Below, one piece after another: positions 5,963 to 64,000 of a DNA stretch of 64,000 bases. Position numbers and translations under genes: made by a program. Each line of letters opens with the position of its first letter. Within the stretch, counting starts at the first letter, position 1. The DNA comes from Bacteroidota bacterium (GTDB taxonomy: Bacteria; Bacteroidota; Bacteroidia; UBA7662): assembly GCA_027485465.1 (NCBI GenBank), contig JAIXRA010000016.1, positions 6-64,005 of the forward strand, given 5' to 3'. A model generated the notes under the pieces. The model searched no databases. It saw only the letters and a program-made list of their open reading frames with translations, and had not been told where the DNA came from.

Positions 5963-7476
5963 TGAAACTGGATTTGTTACTCCGGGAATTGGAAGTCCTC
6001 GACACCAGAGGGCCGCTGGATCTTTCCATCGAATCGGTTTGCGCCGATCATCGGGAGGCAAAGCCTGGTGCAATGTGGGTTGCCATCCGCGGTAGCCGAG
6101 TCGACGGCCATGCCTGGGTTGAAGAAGCGCTGAGGGGCGGGGTTAGCGTGGTGGTGGTCGAAAATGACTTGGCTCCATGGGCGGAGGCCTACCCCCAAAG
6201 CACCTTGGTTCGCGTTCAAAACAGTGCCGAAGCTTTGGGACTTTTGGCATCGGCGATGCAGGGGCATCCATCGCGGGATTTCGACCTGATTGGGGTGACG
6301 GGGACCAATGGGAAAACCAGTGTGGTGACCCTTCTTTACCAGGTATTTAGCCAAATGGGATTCACCTGCGGTTTGATATCCACCGTCGAGTGCCGGGTGG
6401 GGGATCGGGTCCTTCCTTCGACCCATACCACCCCGGATGCCCTTCGAATCAACGAATTGTTACGAGAAATGAAAGAAGCCGGATGCCGGTACGTGTTTAT
6501 GGAGGTTAGTTCCCACGCCATGGCTCAGCACCGGGTTCGTGGATTGCGTTTTCGGGGCGGGGTCTTTACCAATTTGACCCGGGATCATCTGGACTATCAC
6601 GGCACGATGGAAAATTATTTTTTGGCCAAGCGTGCCTTTTTTGATAGCCTGGATTCAACCGCCTTTGCTCTGTACAATGCGGACGATGCCTACGGTCAGG
6701 CCATGGTTTCCTGCAGTGCAGCCATTAAGGTCGCCTACACTTTGAAAGGCGGGGCGGACCTACCGGCAGGCCAAGTGGTTTTTGGTGGCTCCAATCTGGT
6801 CTTGGAGCCGGGTTCATTGCGCATGGATACGACCGAAATCCCCGTGCAGGCGAATCTGACGGGGCGTTTCAACGCCTACAACGCCCTGGCCGTTTATGCA
6901 GTTGCCCGCTTGTTATCGGCTGCCCCCGTGGATATTTCCAAGGCATTGGCGCAGGCCCAACCACCGCAGGGACGAATGTGGAGCCTGAAAGGACCCGAGG
7001 GCCGCTGGGGTTTGGTGGATTATGCCCATACCCCCGATGCGTTAGAGCAGGTTTTGACCACCCTAAAGGATCTCCAAAAAGACCATGGCCGCCTCTTGGT
7101 GGTCTTTGGTTGTGGCGGCGATCGCGACCAGGGCAAGCGTCCCTTGATGGCCGAAGTCGCCTATGCGCATTCCGATGTGATGGTGATGACCTCGGACAAC
7201 CCTCGCAGCGAAGAACCGCTTCGGATTTTGGAACAAATGCGTGAAGGATTGCCCTCCGATGCAATCTCGGAACGGGTCCATTCCATGGCAGACCGGGACG
7301 AGGCCATCCGCGAAGCGGTTCGGTTGAGTCGCCGGGGGGATATGATTTTGGTGGCCGGCAAAGGGCACGAAGCCTACCAAGAAATTCAGGGTCAACGCAT
7401 CCCCTTCAGTGACCGTGAGCGGTTAACGCATTACTTGAATTCGATAGAGTCCATCGACGCAAATTCTAAATCCTGA
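5962..7476 (+). CDS. murE: UDP-N-acetylmuramoyl-L-alanyl-D-glutamate--2,6-diaminopimelate ligase
   Basis: Mur ligase P-loop GVTGTNGKTS, a DNPR motif near the C-terminus (MTSDNPRSEEP), and dcw synteny. Confidence 0.9.
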   Translation: MKLDLLLRELEVLDTRGPLDLSIESVCADHREAKPGAMWVAIRGSRVDGHAWVEEALRGGVSVVVVENDLAPWAEAYPQSTLVRVQNSAEALGLLASAMQGHPSRDFDLIGVTGTNGKTSVVTLLYQVFSQMGFTCGLISTVECRVGDRVLPSTHTTPDALRINELLREMKEAGCRYVFMEVSSHAMAQHRVRGLRFRGGVFTNLTRDHLDYHGTMENYFLAKRAFFDSLDSTAFALYNADDAYGQAMVSCSAAIKVAYTLKGGADLPAGQVVFGGSNLVLEPGSLRMDTTEIPVQANLTGRFNAYNALAVYAVARLLSAAPVDISKALAQAQPPQGRMWSLKGPEGRWGLVDYAHTPDALEQVLTTLKDLQKDHGRLLVVFGCGGDRDQGKRPLMAEVAYAHSDVMVMTSDNPRSEEPLRILEQMREGLPSDAISERVHSMADRDEAIREAVRLSRRGDMILVAGKGHEAYQEIQGQRIPFSDRERLTHYLNSIESIDANSKS

Positions 7477-10002: not shown

Positions 10003-11223
10003 ATGAATCGTTGGTCGGCTTTGTTCAAAGGAGATCGGGTCCTCTGGATTCTGATAGGGCTCCTCATGCTGAGCTCCTTGCCGCTGATTTATTCATCCAC
10101 CGGCCAATTGGCCCTGAGGGAGTACGATGGAAACACCGAGCGTTCCTTGTTAGCCCACGGCGTCAAACTATTGTTAGGAGGCGTCATCATGCTCTTTGCA
10201 CACCGCATCCCTTACCTCTGGTTGGGTCGGTTATCGGCCTGGGGCGTGTACATCGGTTGTGCAATTTTGGCTGTGACCTTGGTCTATGGGCAGACCATCA
10301 ATTCGGCATCCAGGTCTTTGGTGATTCCGTTTACGAACATCAGCTTTCAGGCCTCGGATCCTGCTCGATTTTTCTTGATTTTGTGGCTGGCCCGGGGTTT
10401 GGCTTTGTTACAAAAAGACGAGCGAATTCGGCGATTCGGGGATGGATGGATGCATTTGTTAGGGGGATTGATGGTAACGGCTGTTTTGATTGCCCCCGAA
10501 AATTTATCGACAGCCCTTATGTTATTGGGCGTGGGAATCGGCATGATTTGGGTGGCCGGTGCCCGCATTGTTGATTTATCCAAAGTGGTTGGCGGTGGTC
10601 TTTTGGTCGTGCTCCTCCTCGTGACGGTGGCTTATTGGGCAGGCTGGCCACGCGCCCGCGTTTGGAAGAATCGAGTTGAATCGTTTTGGAACCCAACCCC
10701 TGGTCAAGAGGATTTTCAGGTCATGCAAGCCAAAATCGCCGTATCGGACGGGGGGCTTTGGGGCAAAGGTCCCGGCAAAAGCATCCAACGGAATTTTTTG
10801 CCCCATGCTTATTCCGATTTCATCTACGCGATTGTGATTGAAGAGTACGGGATGGCCGGGGCCACCTGGGTATTGGTGCTTTACCTGGGCTTGTTCTATC
10901 GCATTCGAAAAATTGCCATGAATGCCCGTTCGCCTTACGGGGCCTATATCGCATCGGGGATGGGCATGGCCTTGATGGCCCAGGCCGTGGTGAATATGCT
11001 GGTTTCGGTAAGTGCCATGCCGGTGACGGGCCAGACCCTGCCGTTTATATCGCACGGTGGTAGTTCCATCCTTATCAATGCTTTGGCGATGGGCGTGGTT
11101 CTGAGCGTTAGTCGGGACATGACGGGCGAAGGCGATTGGTCGGAATTGGATATCGAAGGCGAAAGCCAAACGAACAAAGGGGGCGAAGCCGTCCCCTCCA
11201 AAGGGGAGGTGTCGTATGCCTAG
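10003..11223 (+). CDS. ftsW: Lipid II flippase / SEDS peptidoglycan glycosyltransferase FtsW
   Basis: 10-TM SEDS family protein (..HAYSDFIYAIVIEE..) in dcw position. Confidence 0.88.
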   Translation: MNRWSALFKGDRVLWILIGLLMLSSLPLIYSSTGQLALREYDGNTERSLLAHGVKLLLGGVIMLFAHRIPYLWLGRLSAWGVYIGCAILAVTLVYGQTINSASRSLVIPFTNISFQASDPARFFLILWLARGLALLQKDERIRRFGDGWMHLLGGLMVTAVLIAPENLSTALMLLGVGIGMIWVAGARIVDLSKVVGGGLLVVLLLVTVAYWAGWPRARVWKNRVESFWNPTPGQEDFQVMQAKIAVSDGGLWGKGPGKSIQRNFLPHAYSDFIYAIVIEEYGMAGATWVLVLYLGLFYRIRKIAMNARSPYGAYIASGMGMALMAQAVVNMLVSVSAMPVTGQTLPFISHGGSSILINALAMGVVLSVSRDMTGEGDWSELDIEGESQTNKGGEAVPSKGEVSYA

Positions 11224-60074: not shown

Positions 60075-60729
60075 GACTCAAAATTACTTGTTTTTTTGCC
60101 AGGACGTTCCTTTTGAACTTCGAAGCCCCCGACCTGGAGAGTCGGTACAGGGGGTTGAGGAGGTCTGGAATAGGATCCAAAGCATCTTGTACAGCCAAGA
60201 AAAAACCAGCCAATCTCCGGGTTTTTGGGCTGCCCGCGATGTGGTTACAGAGGATCAAGACCGAATGTGGGCCGACTTGATGCAGCGATGTTGGTTGTTG
60301 GAGGCCGGTGGGGGGCTGATTTTTAGTGAAGATCAAATGTTATGGATTCTTCGACACGGTCGATGGGATCTGCCCAAGGGCAAAGCCGAGCCCGGCGAAA
60401 CCATGCTGGAAACGGCTATCAGGGAATGTGTTGAAGAGTGCGGTTTGGTTGATTTAACCCCGTTGGATTCCTATAAAAAATTGGAAACCAATCATTTGTA
60501 TCTATACAAAGGCCAAGTCGCTTGGAAGCGGAGCCATTGGTTCACCATGACCTGTCCGAAGGACCGCAATCAGCGGCTCCAACCCCAAATCGAAGAAGGC
60601 ATCACCGAGGTCCGTTGGATGTCACCCGAGGAGGTGCAATCGGTTGCCTTGCCAGGGACCTACCCATCGGTACGTAGCCTGCTGCAAGGGGCCGGCCCCG
60701 AATACCTCAAAGGTTTGGGTCGGATTTGA
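60073..60729 (+). CDS. NUDIX hydrolase
   Basis: Nudix box GKAEPGETMLETAIRECVEECGL. The ATG at 60073 is chosen as start but a shorter form is possible. The ORF-track 5' extension overlaps pyrE. Confidence 0.65.
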   Translation: MTQNYLFFCQDVPFELRSPRPGESVQGVEEVWNRIQSILYSQEKTSQSPGFWAARDVVTEDQDRMWADLMQRCWLLEAGGGLIFSEDQMLWILRHGRWDLPKGKAEPGETMLETAIRECVEECGLVDLTPLDSYKKLETNHLYLYKGQVAWKRSHWFTMTCPKDRNQRLQPQIEEGITEVRWMSPEEVQSVALPGTYPSVRSLLQGAGPEYLKGLGRI

Positions 60730-61198
60730 GGGCCGAAATACCTCTGGCGACAACGGCGGGTACCAAGGGAGCAGGGTTGCCACCGTGCAATACGATATCG
60801 CGAACTACGGAGGAAGAAACCGCCTGCAATCCTGGGTCGCAGACCAAAAAAAACGTCTCAACCCCAAAAAGATCCCGGTTTAATTGAGCAATGCTCTTTT
60901 CGCTCTCGAAATCGAGGGTGTTGCGCAGGCCCCGAACAATGAAAGAGGCTCCGATTTCCTGACAAAAACGAGCCGTCAAATCTTCGTAGGTCAAGACCTG
61001 AATGCGACTATCTCCAGCCAGCAATTCCTGCAACCAACGCAATCGGGTGGTTAAGTCAAAGAGGTATTTTTTGTCGCTATTGTGTCCAACGGCGACCACC
61101 ATTCGATCAAAATGCACGAGGGAACGCTGAATGAGGTCCAAATGCCCCAGGGTAATGGGGTCAAAGGACCCGGGAAACAAGGCGGTGCGAGGGCTCAT
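60707..61198 (-). CDS. coaD: Phosphopantetheine adenylyltransferase
   Basis: FPGSFDPITLGH (T/HxGH nucleotidyltransferase motif), 163 aa. Confidence 0.92.
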   Translation of the reverse strand: MSPRTALFPGSFDPITLGHLDLIQRSLVHFDRMVVAVGHNSDKKYLFDLTTRLRWLQELLAGDSRIQVLTYEDLTARFCQEIGASFIVRGLRNTLDFESEKSIAQLNRDLFGVETFFLVCDPGLQAVSSSVVRDIVLHGGNPAPLVPAVVARGISALKSDPNL

Positions 61199-61258
61199 GG
61201 TCGGAGGGTGGGGCTGGGGGGAACTTAGTTTCAGGAGGGTGGTCTCCTTCTTGGTAGG

Positions 61259-61816
61259 CTATTCGTTCTCAAAAATACAAAAACGGCTGAGACCGTAGGT
61301 TAGTTCATGCTGTGCCTGGTGGCGAAGGCTAAAGCGTCGGTAAGTGATGGCATGCTCAACAACGAGCAATCCCCCAGAAATCAACAATCCCCCGTCCAAA
61401 ATGCGCTCAACCAATCCCTCTTGGCGGGCATCGCCGTAGGGTGGGTCGGCCAAAATCAATCCAAAAGGCTGCCCTCCCAAGCTGGACAAGGAGAGGGGCC
61501 GGTCATTGGGTGTGAGAAGGTCCGCATGAACGACGCTCCAACGCGGGTCGCTTGAACGATCGCGCAGGCTGTTCAGATGCCGAAGAGCCGCTGGATGCCG
61601 GTCCACACTCATCAATCGACGGGCACCCCGGTTCAGACAGGCCAAACCCAGGCTGCCTGTGCCCGCAAAAAGGTCCAGTACATCGGTTTCTTTCCAATCC
61701 AATCGCGTATTCAAGTGATTAACGAGGCCCGATACTGCTTTGGCCGTTGTGGGCCGTACCACCCATTCGTTGGACTTGGCGCCGAGGAGGGATTGTCTTC
61801 GGCCTTTTTCCTTCAT
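61259..61816 (-). CDS. rsmD: 16S rRNA (guanine966-N2)-methyltransferase RsmD
   Basis: DPPY catalytic motif, SAM-binding DLFAGTGSLG, and conserved rsmD-coaD adjacency. Start taken at MKEKG, where ATGA overlaps the upstream stop. Confidence 0.85.
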   Translation of the reverse strand: MKEKGRRQSLLGAKSNEWVVRPTTAKAVSGLVNHLNTRLDWKETDVLDLFAGTGSLGLACLNRGARRLMSVDRHPAALRHLNSLRDRSSDPRWSVVHADLLTPNDRPLSLSSLGGQPFGLILADPPYGDARQEGLVERILDGGLLISGGLLVVEHAITYRRFSLRHQAQHELTYGLSRFCIFENE

Positions 61817-62703
61817 TCGCAGGCCGCCTGCCATAGACGCAGGCCTTCTTGGAGGCATTCAAGTCGGTTGATTGCACCGTCCTGCGCACCCTCGATCCCC
61901 ACCGCAAAAACTTGTTCAAAAGCGCCCTCCAAGGCTGCGCGCAATTCGGGGTCCTCGGTTATGGAGCCCGCAAAATGCAAAACGCTCGCCCCGTGTTCTT
62001 CTTTTTGACGCAGCAGGTGAAAGAGAATGTCATGCGAATGGCTGATGAGGTAGCGGCCGTGATGGCAAAGTTTATGGGGTTCCATGACCCAGATGGAGGC
62101 ATCCCGCTGACCGATGAGAAGGGTGATTTGACGGGTTTTGGAATCCGATGCAGCGATTCGATGCTGCCAAAAAGCCGTCCAAAGGACCGAGGAACTGTAC
62201 ACGGGTCCCAAGGTCGGGTTCTGGGCCAAAGCATGGTGCCAGGGTTGGGGCAAGGCAAAGATCTGAACCGCCTGAAAGGCCGGCCACGCCTGCCAGCCAA
62301 GAGCCTCTCCGCCGAGTGGACCGCAAACCGATTCAAAGAGGGGCCGAAGACCCGGTGTACTGTCAGGATCCTGGACCAAGCCTCTACGCCCGCTTCCCCA
62401 ACCCCATTCAGAAACCAAACCGAGGGGCATCCAGGTGCTGCGAGGAAAATCTGCGACCCAAGCCTCCCAACGAGGTCTTTTTTGAATCAAAGCATCGAAA
62501 TAGGCCAAGGCCTGATCAGGGCGGGCGGTATCCCGCTCTGGGAGCACCGCTTCGGTTTCTGAGGACCGATAAGCGCGGAGTGATTCAGGTAGAAGGAGAC
62601 CCTGAGGGGGTAATTCCAAGCGTTGCCAAGGGGGACCGGCGTACAATTCGTCATCCAGCTCCAGTAAGCAGGGATTCGGAAAGGTTTGAAGGTGTTCCGT
62701 CAA
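61813..62703 (-). CDS. Hypothetical protein (possibly DUF3822-like; often found upstream of rsmD in Bacteroidota)
   Basis: 296-aa ORF with coding-like composition and a translationally coupled stop/start with rsmD. I recognise no catalytic motif. Confidence 0.5.
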   Translation of the reverse strand: MTEHLQTFPNPCLLELDDELYAGPPWQRLELPPQGLLLPESLRAYRSSETEAVLPERDTARPDQALAYFDALIQKRPRWEAWVADFPRSTWMPLGLVSEWGWGSGRRGLVQDPDSTPGLRPLFESVCGPLGGEALGWQAWPAFQAVQIFALPQPWHHALAQNPTLGPVYSSSVLWTAFWQHRIAASDSKTRQITLLIGQRDASIWVMEPHKLCHHGRYLISHSHDILFHLLRQKEEHGASVLHFAGSITEDPELRAALEGAFEQVFAVGIEGAQDGAINRLECLQEGLRLWQAACE

Positions 62704-62715
62704 CCAAAAAAGGGC

Positions 62716-63252
62716 TTATTCCCAGTTACCGCTCAAATTCGCGTCGACCATGGAGCCGACCCGGAGGACTTTGCGGGTGTCGAAGGGAGCTGAATCTTCC
62801 ACCTCAAAAACGTTGAGCTCCAGGTTGCTTTTTTTGACTTTGCCGGCCCGCAGGATGAATCGTGCCGTATCGGCATAGGGAACATAAGGCAAGGAGTCGA
62901 TAGGGTAATTCTTGAAAAGCGAGTCGGCTACTGAAATCAAGATGGTTTCGTAGCGAATCCCACGACGGATATCCGCCGAATCATCGGGGTTACCGATGAC
63001 TTTGGTGATTTTCATTTTCCCGTTCTTGGTGTATTGAAGGAGTTTTTCCCACGTATCTGCGAACTCGCCGTTGTTTTCACGGTAGGTAACCTGGGCGGTT
63101 CGAATTTGCTTCAGTCGTTCAATGACGGCTGCGTAGCGACGGTCCCGCTCCTTTTCGAAACGCAAAGGTTTGGCCACGGTTTCGATGGTTTCGTAGGTGA
63201 GCCAAACAATCAGACCCAGGAGAACGAGTTTGAGGATGTTTTGGAGGTTCAT
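62716..63252 (-). CDS. Hypothetical membrane-anchored protein
   Basis: N-terminal signal anchor (ILKLVLLGLIVWLTY) plus a ~150-aa soluble domain with no recognised motifs. Confidence 0.5.
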   Translation of the reverse strand: MNLQNILKLVLLGLIVWLTYETIETVAKPLRFEKERDRRYAAVIERLKQIRTAQVTYRENNGEFADTWEKLLQYTKNGKMKITKVIGNPDDSADIRRGIRYETILISVADSLFKNYPIDSLPYVPYADTARFILRAGKVKKSNLELNVFEVEDSAPFDTRKVLRVGSMVDANLSGNWE

Positions 63253-63348
63253 AAAGCGGATTTGCCCTGCAATATTACCAACAACCCCTTGAATTAGGGT
63301 TTGTATTCATGTAAACATTTTGGTCGCCTTGGTGTTGAACTCTTGACC

Positions 63349-64000
63349 ATGGACCGTTTTTCGATCAAAGACATCGAAGCCTTAACAGGCATCAAGGCCG
63401 CTACCCTGCGGATGTGGGAGACTCGGTACAATCTGGTGGAGCCCAAACGCAGCACCACCAACATTCGCTATTACGATCAAGATGACCTTCGCAAGCTTCT
63501 CGGAGTAGCCGCACTGATGCGCCAAGGTGCCAAAATTTCCCACCTGGCCAAAATGCAGGCGGAGGAATTGCATCAGGCTGTCCTGCATCAGGAACTGGCC
63601 CCGTTGCCCTTGGATGAACGACTAGAGGCCCTCACCTTGGCCATGATTAGCTTGGATGAACCGGCCTTTCAGAGGCTCCTAACCCGGGCTTTTGATCAAT
63701 GCGGGGTCGAAGAGGCCATGATGGATTTGATTTTTCCTTTCTTTCGACGCATTGGCATTCTTTGGCAAACGGGGTCCATCAATCCGGCCCACGAGCATTT
63801 TATTACCAATATCATCCGCCAAAAATTAATTGTGGCGATTGATCGATTGGCTGAACAGGCCGGTCCCGGCTCATCAACAGGCCCAAGCCAGAGCGCACGG
63901 CGATACTTGTTGTACCTGCCCGAAGGCGAGTTCCATGAATTGGGTTTGCTTTTTGCGTCTTTTCTCCTCAAGGCCCGCGGTCAGCAAGTGGCCTATATTG
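63349..64000 (+). CDS. MerR-family transcriptional regulator with a CarH/LitR-type cobalamin-binding domain, 3'-truncated at the window edge
   Basis: N-terminal MerR HTH (FSIKDIEALTGIKAATLRMWETRYNL..NIRYYDQDDL). The C-terminal part carries RRYLLYLPEGEFHELGLLFASFLLKARGQQVAYI, which matches the B12-binding E-x-H-E-x-G...G motif of CarH. It is not in the ORF track because no stop falls inside the window. Confidence 0.7.
   Translation, partial: MDRFSIKDIEALTGIKAATLRMWETRYNLVEPKRSTTNIRYYDQDDLRKLLGVAALMRQGAKISHLAKMQAEELHQAVLHQELAPLPLDERLEALTLAMISLDEPAFQRLLTRAFDQCGVEEAMMDLIFPFFRRIGILWQTGSINPAHEHFITNIIRQKLIVAIDRLAEQAGPGSSTGPSQSARRYLLYLPEGEFHELGLLFASFLLKARGQQVAYI

Follow-up and report, generated by a model that had tools for sequence, protein, structure and literature searches.

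The last 652 nt of a 64,000-nt stretch of the Bacteroidota contig JAIXRA010000016.1 (this stretch is called the window below) hold the beginning of an open reading frame (ORF) that an initial annotation attributed to a B12-dependent, light-sensing regulator of the CarH/LitR type. Two questions arise at this locus: whether the gene cut by the window end encodes such a photoreceptor, and which genes it would control through which DNA sites. We consider it likely that the gene encodes a class I CarH/LitR regulator, in which a MerR-type domain is joined to an adenosylcobalamin (AdoCbl)-binding four-helix bundle and Rossmann module, and that this protein would bind B12, respond to light and act in the carotenoid circuit proposed below.

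Domains and motifs of the truncated gene

The gene and the parts of it that lie inside the window are as follows. Family conservation refers to an alignment of 46 Bacteroidota sequences, and TtCarH is the CarH protein of Thermus thermophilus.

63349..64000 (652 nt), plus strand: 5′ part of a carH/litR-type gene, 217 codons, with an ATG start and the frame open to the window end
63358..63561, plus strand: MerR-type winged-helix DNA-binding domain, amino acids 4-71 (Pfam MerR_1, E = 5e-15, 55.7 bits against a cut-off of 21.6)
63409..63429, plus strand: recognition-helix motif RMWETRY, by motif and family conservation
63622..63828, plus strand: B12-binding four-helix bundle, amino acids 92-160 (Pfam B12-binding_2, E = 8e-12; helices at 88-170 in the AlphaFold2 model)
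63763..63798, plus strand: Wx9EH motif WQTGSINPAHEH, amino acids 139-150, with W, E and H invariant in 46/46 family members
63928..63945, plus strand: E-x-H-x2-G motif (EFHELG), amino acids 194-199, start of the Rossmann module, aligned to TtCarH E175-x-H177

The start at MDRFSIKD is favoured by the family alignment, and a longer N-terminus of the window gene is precluded by an in-frame TAG at 63295-63297. On these two grounds a start giving 331 amino acids, with the 20-residue N-terminal extension called in the proteins P0002 and P0003, was rejected for the window gene. The initial annotation had placed a MerR-type helix-turn-helix at the N-terminus, and Pfam finds the domain there. In the recognition helix R21, W23, E24 and R26 are kept in 46/46 family sequences. 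The window reads RMWETRY, the family consensus is RIWEQRY and the CarH motif is RxWERRY, with Q or T here instead of R at the fifth residue.

A cobalamin-binding signature with its His lower-axial ligand had been claimed in LLYLPEGEFHELGLLFASFLLKARGQQVAYI (amino acids 187-217, nt 63907-63999), and the alignments bear this out. E194, H196 and E197 are invariant in the family, and His196 falls on the lower-axial His177 of TtCarH, so it is predicted to coordinate cobalt as the lower axial ligand. The Rossmann module is cut by the window end, and E-x-H-x2-G is the sole part of its signature inside the window. The Wx9EH motif, which the initial annotation missed, adds to the proposed CarH/LitR-like identity; its W139, E149 and H150 align with W131, E141 and H142 of TtCarH. 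In TtCarH this motif forms the cap over the 5′-deoxyadenosyl group (motif definition in PMC9304148). The top PDB sequence matches of the fragment were the T. thermophilus CarH entries 3whp and 5c8d (E = 1e-17), and the CarH-type matches of the fragment are far above chance.

Full-length orthologue and predicted fold

More than 5000 relatives of the fragment were found by protein search. P0001, of 311 amino acids, lies on the JGI metagenome contig L002, which overlaps the window at 63290-64000 with 98.9% nucleotide identity and then reaches 1 kb beyond; only 2 residues of P0001 are unlike those of the window across the shared 217 amino acids. Its B12 signature reads E194-x-H196-x2-G199-x41-S241-x-T243-x26-T270-G271. 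The class I signature, carried by a five-stranded Rossmann module, is D/ExHx2G/P-x41-SxT/V-x22-27-GG (PMC9304148), and P0001 matches it except for TG in place of GG.

An AlphaFold2 model of the 311-residue orthologue was built on the 46-sequence family alignment. It reached a predicted local distance difference test score of 87.5 and a predicted template modelling (TM) score of 0.78, and showed a five-stranded Rossmann C-terminus made of five beta/alpha units at residues 185-304. In a Foldseek comparison with the PDB the top 39 matches were all TtCarH, with E = 2e-14 for the full-length structure and target-normalised TM-scores of 0.76-0.81 over the cobalamin-binding domain of TtCarH. The full-length sequence also matched TtCarH (E = 1e-22). 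The model, the Foldseek matches and the motif thus agree that the rest of the Rossmann B12 domain, presumed by the initial annotation to follow past the window end, is present in the full-length orthologue.

Class I LitR proteins are those with both B12 subdomains (PMC9758184), and the presence of both is our reason for assigning the window protein to this class. According to the criterion of PMC9304148, the intact Wx9EH motif makes it CarH-like and not CarA-like. Identities as a class II-V LitR, a CarA or an AerR-like protein were rejected on domain content.

Carotenoid genes beside carH

On L002 a crtZ-like ORF of 156 amino acids (1015-1485) begins 19 nt past the carH stop. It contains the motifs HKYLMHGPLWFIHxxHH, HDxxVHRR and AHRxHH. 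Next to a more distant carH stands a homologue that Pfam recognises as FA_hydroxylase, and the two proteins share 42% identity (E = 1e-40). JGI uses the name beta-carotene 3-hydroxylase for homologues of 62% identity; the ORF of the close relative itself was left unscored by Pfam and NCBIfam. The order carH then crtZ is also found in L087 (93% nucleotide identity, window 60635-64000), L001 (80%) and L003. In these relatives carH and the crtZ-like gene are followed by unrelated genes, among them gliding genes, in the order S9 peptidase, UvrD-like helicase, DUF4271, HEM4, PorP/SprF, GldK and GldL. The expectation of carotenoid genes just past the window therefore holds in part: crtZ lies immediately downstream of carH in all four of these loci and is the only carotenoid gene there, and the expected crtI and crtB do not follow carH-crtZ in the close relatives.

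The wider family was surveyed in a genome scan with one genome per species. At least 584 relatives were found, and the best 80 were mostly titled as Bacteroidota taxa, chiefly Cytophagales such as Algoriphagus, Cyclobacterium, Emticicia, Spirosoma, Runella and Roseivirga. Neighbouring genes were clustered across 86 loci. crtZ adjoins carH in 44 of them, and 36 have, in this order, carH, a gene for an extracytoplasmic function (ECF) sigma factor, crtI, crtB, (a lycopene cyclase gene), lytB/ispH, and crtW or crtZ; Caroten_synth, DUF4286 and TspO genes often stand upstream in the loci with the full carotenoid cluster. An ECF sigma gene is near carH in 42/86 loci, and in about 38 it comes directly after carH, usually ahead of crtI-crtB. 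The clade of the window consists of L001-L010 and L087. Here carH-crtZ stands beside pyrE, NUDIX, coaD, rsmD, DUF3822 and a hypothetical gene of 178 amino acids, and has been relocated next to this block running from pyrE to the 178-amino-acid gene.

In L006, a relative with 57% protein identity, positions 1-2097 hold an ECF sigma gene of the carH-adjacent cluster, a gene of 205 amino acids and a DNA photolyase gene. The three lie 8 kb upstream of carH and again hint at a light regulon.

Two of the metagenome-assembled genomes are titled 'Sphingomonadales bacterium' (L007, VHAW01000009.1) and 'Agrobacterium sp.' (L014, CALRQL020000007.1). L007 has the Bacteroidota-type order pyrE-coaD-rsmD-carH-crtZ-S9 peptidase. 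Both are likely mislabelled or mixed bins.

The intergenic region and its bipartite element

Three features lie between carH and its divergent neighbour.

63253..63348 (96 nt): intergenic region between the divergent 178-amino-acid gene and carH, from ORF limits and orthologue alignment
63312..63338, plus strand: bipartite element TAAACA-N15-TGTTGA (fits AACA-N16-GTTG), conserved, ending 10 nt before the ATG
63268..63278, minus strand: block TGCAATATTAC near the start of the divergent gene, conserved in orthologue alignments; on the minus strand it reads GTAATATTGCA, containing TAATATTG

The initial annotation gave the length of this region correctly and expected in it an operator made of repeated CarH-type half-sites. 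None occurred above chance; the region holds a single TAAACA, at 63312-63317, which fits the CarH half-site TnnACA and lies in a conserved bipartite motif that is more likely a promoter. Known CarH operators are built of three or four tandem 11-bp direct repeats nnnnTnnACAn that overlap the promoter (PMC9304148). Across 72 family promoter regions tandem 11-bp CarH arrays were not enriched over shuffles. No direct or inverted repeat was found in the intergenic region by a repeat search with a 6-nt seed, and a scan of 63150-63450 gave no sigma-70 promoter or terminator.

The bipartite element was compared in six orthologous sequences: its blocks G(T/G)AAACA and GGTGTTG are invariant, and spacer and flanks vary. 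The pattern AACA-N16/17-GTT[AG] is present on the coding strand of 45/87 family operon-promoter regions, compared with 4 on the other strand. It was also counted gene by gene, as [AT]AACA-N16/17-GTT[AG] within 120 nt upstream, with the following results.

crtZ: 20/43 loci
Caroten_synth: 13/43 loci
lytB: 11/35 loci
carH: 19/84 loci
crtI: 0/36 loci
ECF sigma: 1/42 loci
all other genes: 3/506

In copies close to the gene, about 4-11 nt usually separate the end of the second block from the start codon, while some others are found 86-170 nt upstream. Outside the two blocks the family copies have no conserved position. A first position weight matrix ranked the window site top in 128 kb with 17.4 bits, and this result was discounted since the matrix had been trained partly on close orthologues. 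When the matrix was retrained without L001-L010, the window site scored 13.2 bits and ranked fourth in 128 kb, within the maxima of whole-window shuffles; this score is significant for the 96-nt region only (roughly p = 0.002-0.005). It follows from the retrained rank that the element is meaningful only because it is located in the 96-nt promoter region and conserved there.

Judged by its shape, its strand bias and its position, the bipartite element is more likely a promoter of the ECF-sigma type, with AAACA as the -35 and GTTr as the -10 element, from which a nearly leaderless mRNA would start. TAAACA at 63312-63317 may be the -35 element, a CarH half-site, or both. Bacteroidetes promoters have the consensus TAnnTTTG, and by its likeness to this consensus TAATATTG may be the -7 box of the promoter of the divergent gene.

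Half-site arrays before ECF sigma genes in relatives

In 38 spacers between carH and the ECF sigma gene there are 163 copies of TAAACA/TGTTTA, compared with 16.7 ± 4.3 in shuffles. From start to start, the copies favour distances of 24 between a reverse and a following forward one, 20 between a forward and a following reverse one, and 44. The spacer consensus is TTTTGTTTAA-N16-ATTAAACAA..TTTG..TTTTTGTTTAA-N6-TAnATTTG-ATTAAACAAAA, with about 20 nt between it and the start codon of the sigma gene. Each array has four TTAAACA/TGTTTAA half-sites, whose orientation alternates and which are spaced 24/20/24 bp apart (for example L083 at about 6900-7100, L019, L043 and L046). TTTG and TAnATTTG are what we take to be the -33 and -7 consensus of the Bacteroidetes primary sigma factor, and as read from the spacers the four half-sites interleave this candidate promoter of the ECF sigma gene. 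TAAACA in these arrays meets the CarH half-site TnnACA, yet the layout departs from that of the CarH operators so far described, which are tandem 11-bp repeats.

Clusters of at least three half-sites number 33 in the carH-sigma spacer and about 9 elsewhere in roughly 1 Mb, the latter mostly also beside carH; the window has none. The array around the sigma promoter suggests repression of the sigma gene by CarH, with the sigma factor in turn driving the AAACA-N16-GTTr promoters. On this reading the main CarH operator for the window lineage is probably elsewhere in the genome.

In L006 the 3′ end of carH, shortly before crtZ, contains four TGTTTA hexamers of the same orientation within 77 nt (10627-10703).

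Proposed circuit

By analogy with TtCarH and Streptomyces LitR, AdoCbl-bound CarH would oligomerise in the dark on the promoter DNA of carotenoid genes. Near-UV to green light would break the Co-C bond, upon which the oligomer would dissociate or its DNA binding change, and the carotenoid genes would then be expressed as photoprotection. In the window lineage carH and the crtZ-type beta-carotene hydroxylase gene just past the window would form a two-gene operon, started by the AAACA-N16-GTTG promoter of ECF-sigma type with a very short leader. The most likely circuit would be a relay like that of LitR and LitS, in which CarH gates an ECF sigma factor, unlinked in the window lineage, and this sigma factor drives carH-crtZ and the other carotenoid operons.

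It may further be that the Bacteroidota CarH subfamily as a whole has a new operator architecture and circuit. This broader proposal comprises an alternating four-half-site array on the sigma promoter, sigma-driven satellite operons with AAACA-N16/17-GTTr including carH-crtZ, and Gln in place of His132, implying a different light-state chemistry. We put it forward tentatively, at somewhat less than even chances.

Evidence against the proposal and alternative readings

Several observations weigh against a light-sensing CarH with the circuit above. Two curated models scored below threshold: Pfam B12-binding PF02310 gave 23.9 bits (gathering score 32.1), and the NCBIfam CarH equivalog NF052513 gave 103.1 bits for P0001 and 88.8 for the window fragment (cut-off 400). 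Most family members have V or I where SxT has Ser, and GG is replaced by S/T-G. His132 of TtCarH is the upper ligand of the light-state bis-His adduct, and its equivalent, Q140, is Gln in 43/46 Bacteroidota family members. The R176-D201 dimer salt bridge of TtCarH is replaced by F/L/Y/P and N/S across the family; in the window lineage the residues are the hydrophobic F195 and N220 (N or S in the family). With His132 changed to Gln and this bridge lost, oligomer assembly and light state may differ from those of TtCarH. Among the assembly and light-state residues compared, G211 (TtCarH Gly192), kept in 37/46 sequences, is the sole one mostly conserved. These TtCarH residues are not universal among known CarH proteins either (PMC9304148). 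At the DNA level, the best match to a canonical operator of three 11-bp repeats on both strands of 63253-63348 reached 7/12, the modal score of 2000 shuffles. When the 64-kb window was searched by tblastn with crtZ, crtI, crtB, lytB, crtW, lycopene cyclase, Caroten_synth, ECF sigma, TspO and DUF4286 from related loci, there were no matches; the window has no ECF sigma gene, crtI or crtB, so the regulon is one that we infer. The literature searched, with incomplete coverage that makes this a weak negative, contained no experimentally studied Bacteroidota CarH.

The partly degenerate B12-binding motif, the loss of His132 and of the dimer salt bridge, and the low scores with the curated models could also suit a B12-binding regulator that signals how much cobalamin is available, or the redox state, and not light, or a B12-independent repressor like CarA. 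We regard this as very improbable. Wx9EH is intact and invariant, and it is the criterion that separates AdoCbl-dependent CarH from CarA (PMC9304148); the lower-axial His is invariant as well, and the family-wide linkage to carotenoid genes, together with the photolyase in L006, points to light. If light is the signal, the protein could still work mainly as a light-dependent activator that remodels the promoter spacer in the classical MerR manner, as is reported of the light form of Streptomyces LitR at litS, rather than as a dark repressor. LitR with hydroxy-B12 has been described as activating the litS promoter in Streptomyces (PMC11519972). The window element does look like a -35/-10 pair, and a MerR protein could span the two. 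MerR-activated promoters typically have an overlong spacer of 19-20 nt, however, and the spacer here is 16-17 nt; moreover, the half-site arrays of relatives interleave the -33/-7 elements of the sigma promoter, which suggests occlusion. Activation of this kind is improbable in our view.

The last alternative concerns the element in front of carH. TAAACA-N15-TGTTGA could be the CarH operator itself, an imperfect inverted repeat bound by one dimer, through which carH-crtZ is directly autorepressed without a sigma relay. TAAACA fits the half-site TnnACA (PMC9304148), the same hexamer is enriched ten-fold in the arrays next to carH in relatives, and in the window clade TGTTGA is nearly the reverse complement of the first block. 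Family-wide, however, the second block is rGTTAt and not TGTTTA, and the forward-to-reverse spacing is 21-22, compared with 20 in the arrays. The element is also strand-specific, and its second block, in the copies that lie close to the gene, has the place of a -10 element. Besides, no alternative promoter is recognisable there, neither of the sigma-70 type by scan nor TAnnTTTG by eye. Direct autorepression is possible but unlikely, and we keep to the relay, in which the element would serve as the promoter recognised by an ECF sigma factor.

Other genes of the window

The window was annotated in part, with about 20 large ORFs compared with Pfam. These were housekeeping genes only (pntB, gltA, EF-G, SecY, carA, eno, SHMT, pyrB and others). 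ORF layout suggests a putative cell-division (dcw) cluster at 2.6-19 kb. Rfam at gathering thresholds found no RNA family in the whole 64 kb, that is, no cobalamin riboswitch, other riboswitch, tRNA or ribosomal-protein leader. The neighbour of carH is the following gene.

62716..63252, minus strand: divergent hypothetical protein of 178 amino acids with a hydrophobic N-terminus, no Pfam or NCBIfam match

It belongs to gene cluster c18, which adjoins carH in L003-L010, and it is a conserved neighbour of DUF3822-rsmD-coaD and carH even in distant relatives. This gene is probably outside the light system.

Significance of the locus

Within a Bacteroidota family that is very large, widespread and already annotated, the window locus is an ordinary case. 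JGI labels some members 'light-induced transcriptional regulator', which indicates that annotation pipelines already recognise the family; the NCBI label on relatives is only 'MerR family transcriptional regulator'. For annotation, the gene can be given the name of a class I CarH/LitR B12 photoreceptor, one that shares an operon with crtZ. Light-regulated xanthophyll synthesis would then be implied in a non-phototrophic, probably freshwater Bacteroidota lineage.

The value of the case lies in the family comparison and not in anything unusual at the window locus, and the family-level pattern of operator and sigma relay is the only part that might interest specialists. CarH is in use as an optogenetic and biomaterials module. 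The large subfamily, which has Gln at His132, another dimer interface and what seems to be another operator layout, would be a reasonable biochemical target.

Comparison with known systems

TtCarH (PDB 5C8D/5C8E/5C8F and 3WHP) is the best sequence and fold match of the window protein in the PDB. Both have the MerR winged helix, the four-helix bundle with Wx9EH and the Rossmann module with a His lower ligand, and both are linked to carotenoid genes. However, the window-family protein is only about 25% identical to TtCarH. It has Gln for His132 and F/N for R176/D201, its recognition helix is RxWE(Q/T)RY where TtCarH has RxWERRY, and the tandem nnnnTnnACAn operator was not found here.

The CarH proteins of Myxococcus xanthus and Bacillus megaterium resemble the window protein in domain organisation, in Wx9EH and in their role in photoregulated carotenogenesis. 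The B. megaterium operator has four tandem direct repeats, whereas in the arrays of the Bacteroidota relatives successive half-sites point in opposite directions and recur about every 22 bp. CarA of M. xanthus is without the Trp of Wx9EH and is B12-independent, and CarA-type paralogues have lost residues flanking this Trp as well; the window protein keeps this Trp, which is invariant in the family, so it is not CarA-like.

In Streptomyces a class I LitR acts in a relay with its partner ECF sigma factor LitS (PMC11519972). Similarly, related Bacteroidota loci pair carH with an ECF sigma gene, and their carotenoid operons carry a motif like an ECF-type promoter. The window lineage differs from Streptomyces in having no adjacent sigma gene, and the gene order is tandem and not divergent. 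The promoter consensus differs as well, being AAACA-N16/17-GTTr in the Bacteroidota family and GCATCCR-N15-CVGAAD in the Streptomyces LitR/LitS system.

The class II-V LitR proteins of Pseudomonas, Burkholderia, Vibrio and Micrococcales share the N-terminal MerR-type domain. They are without the Rossmann B12 module or without the whole B12 domain (PMC9758184), whereas the window-family protein has both B12 subdomains.

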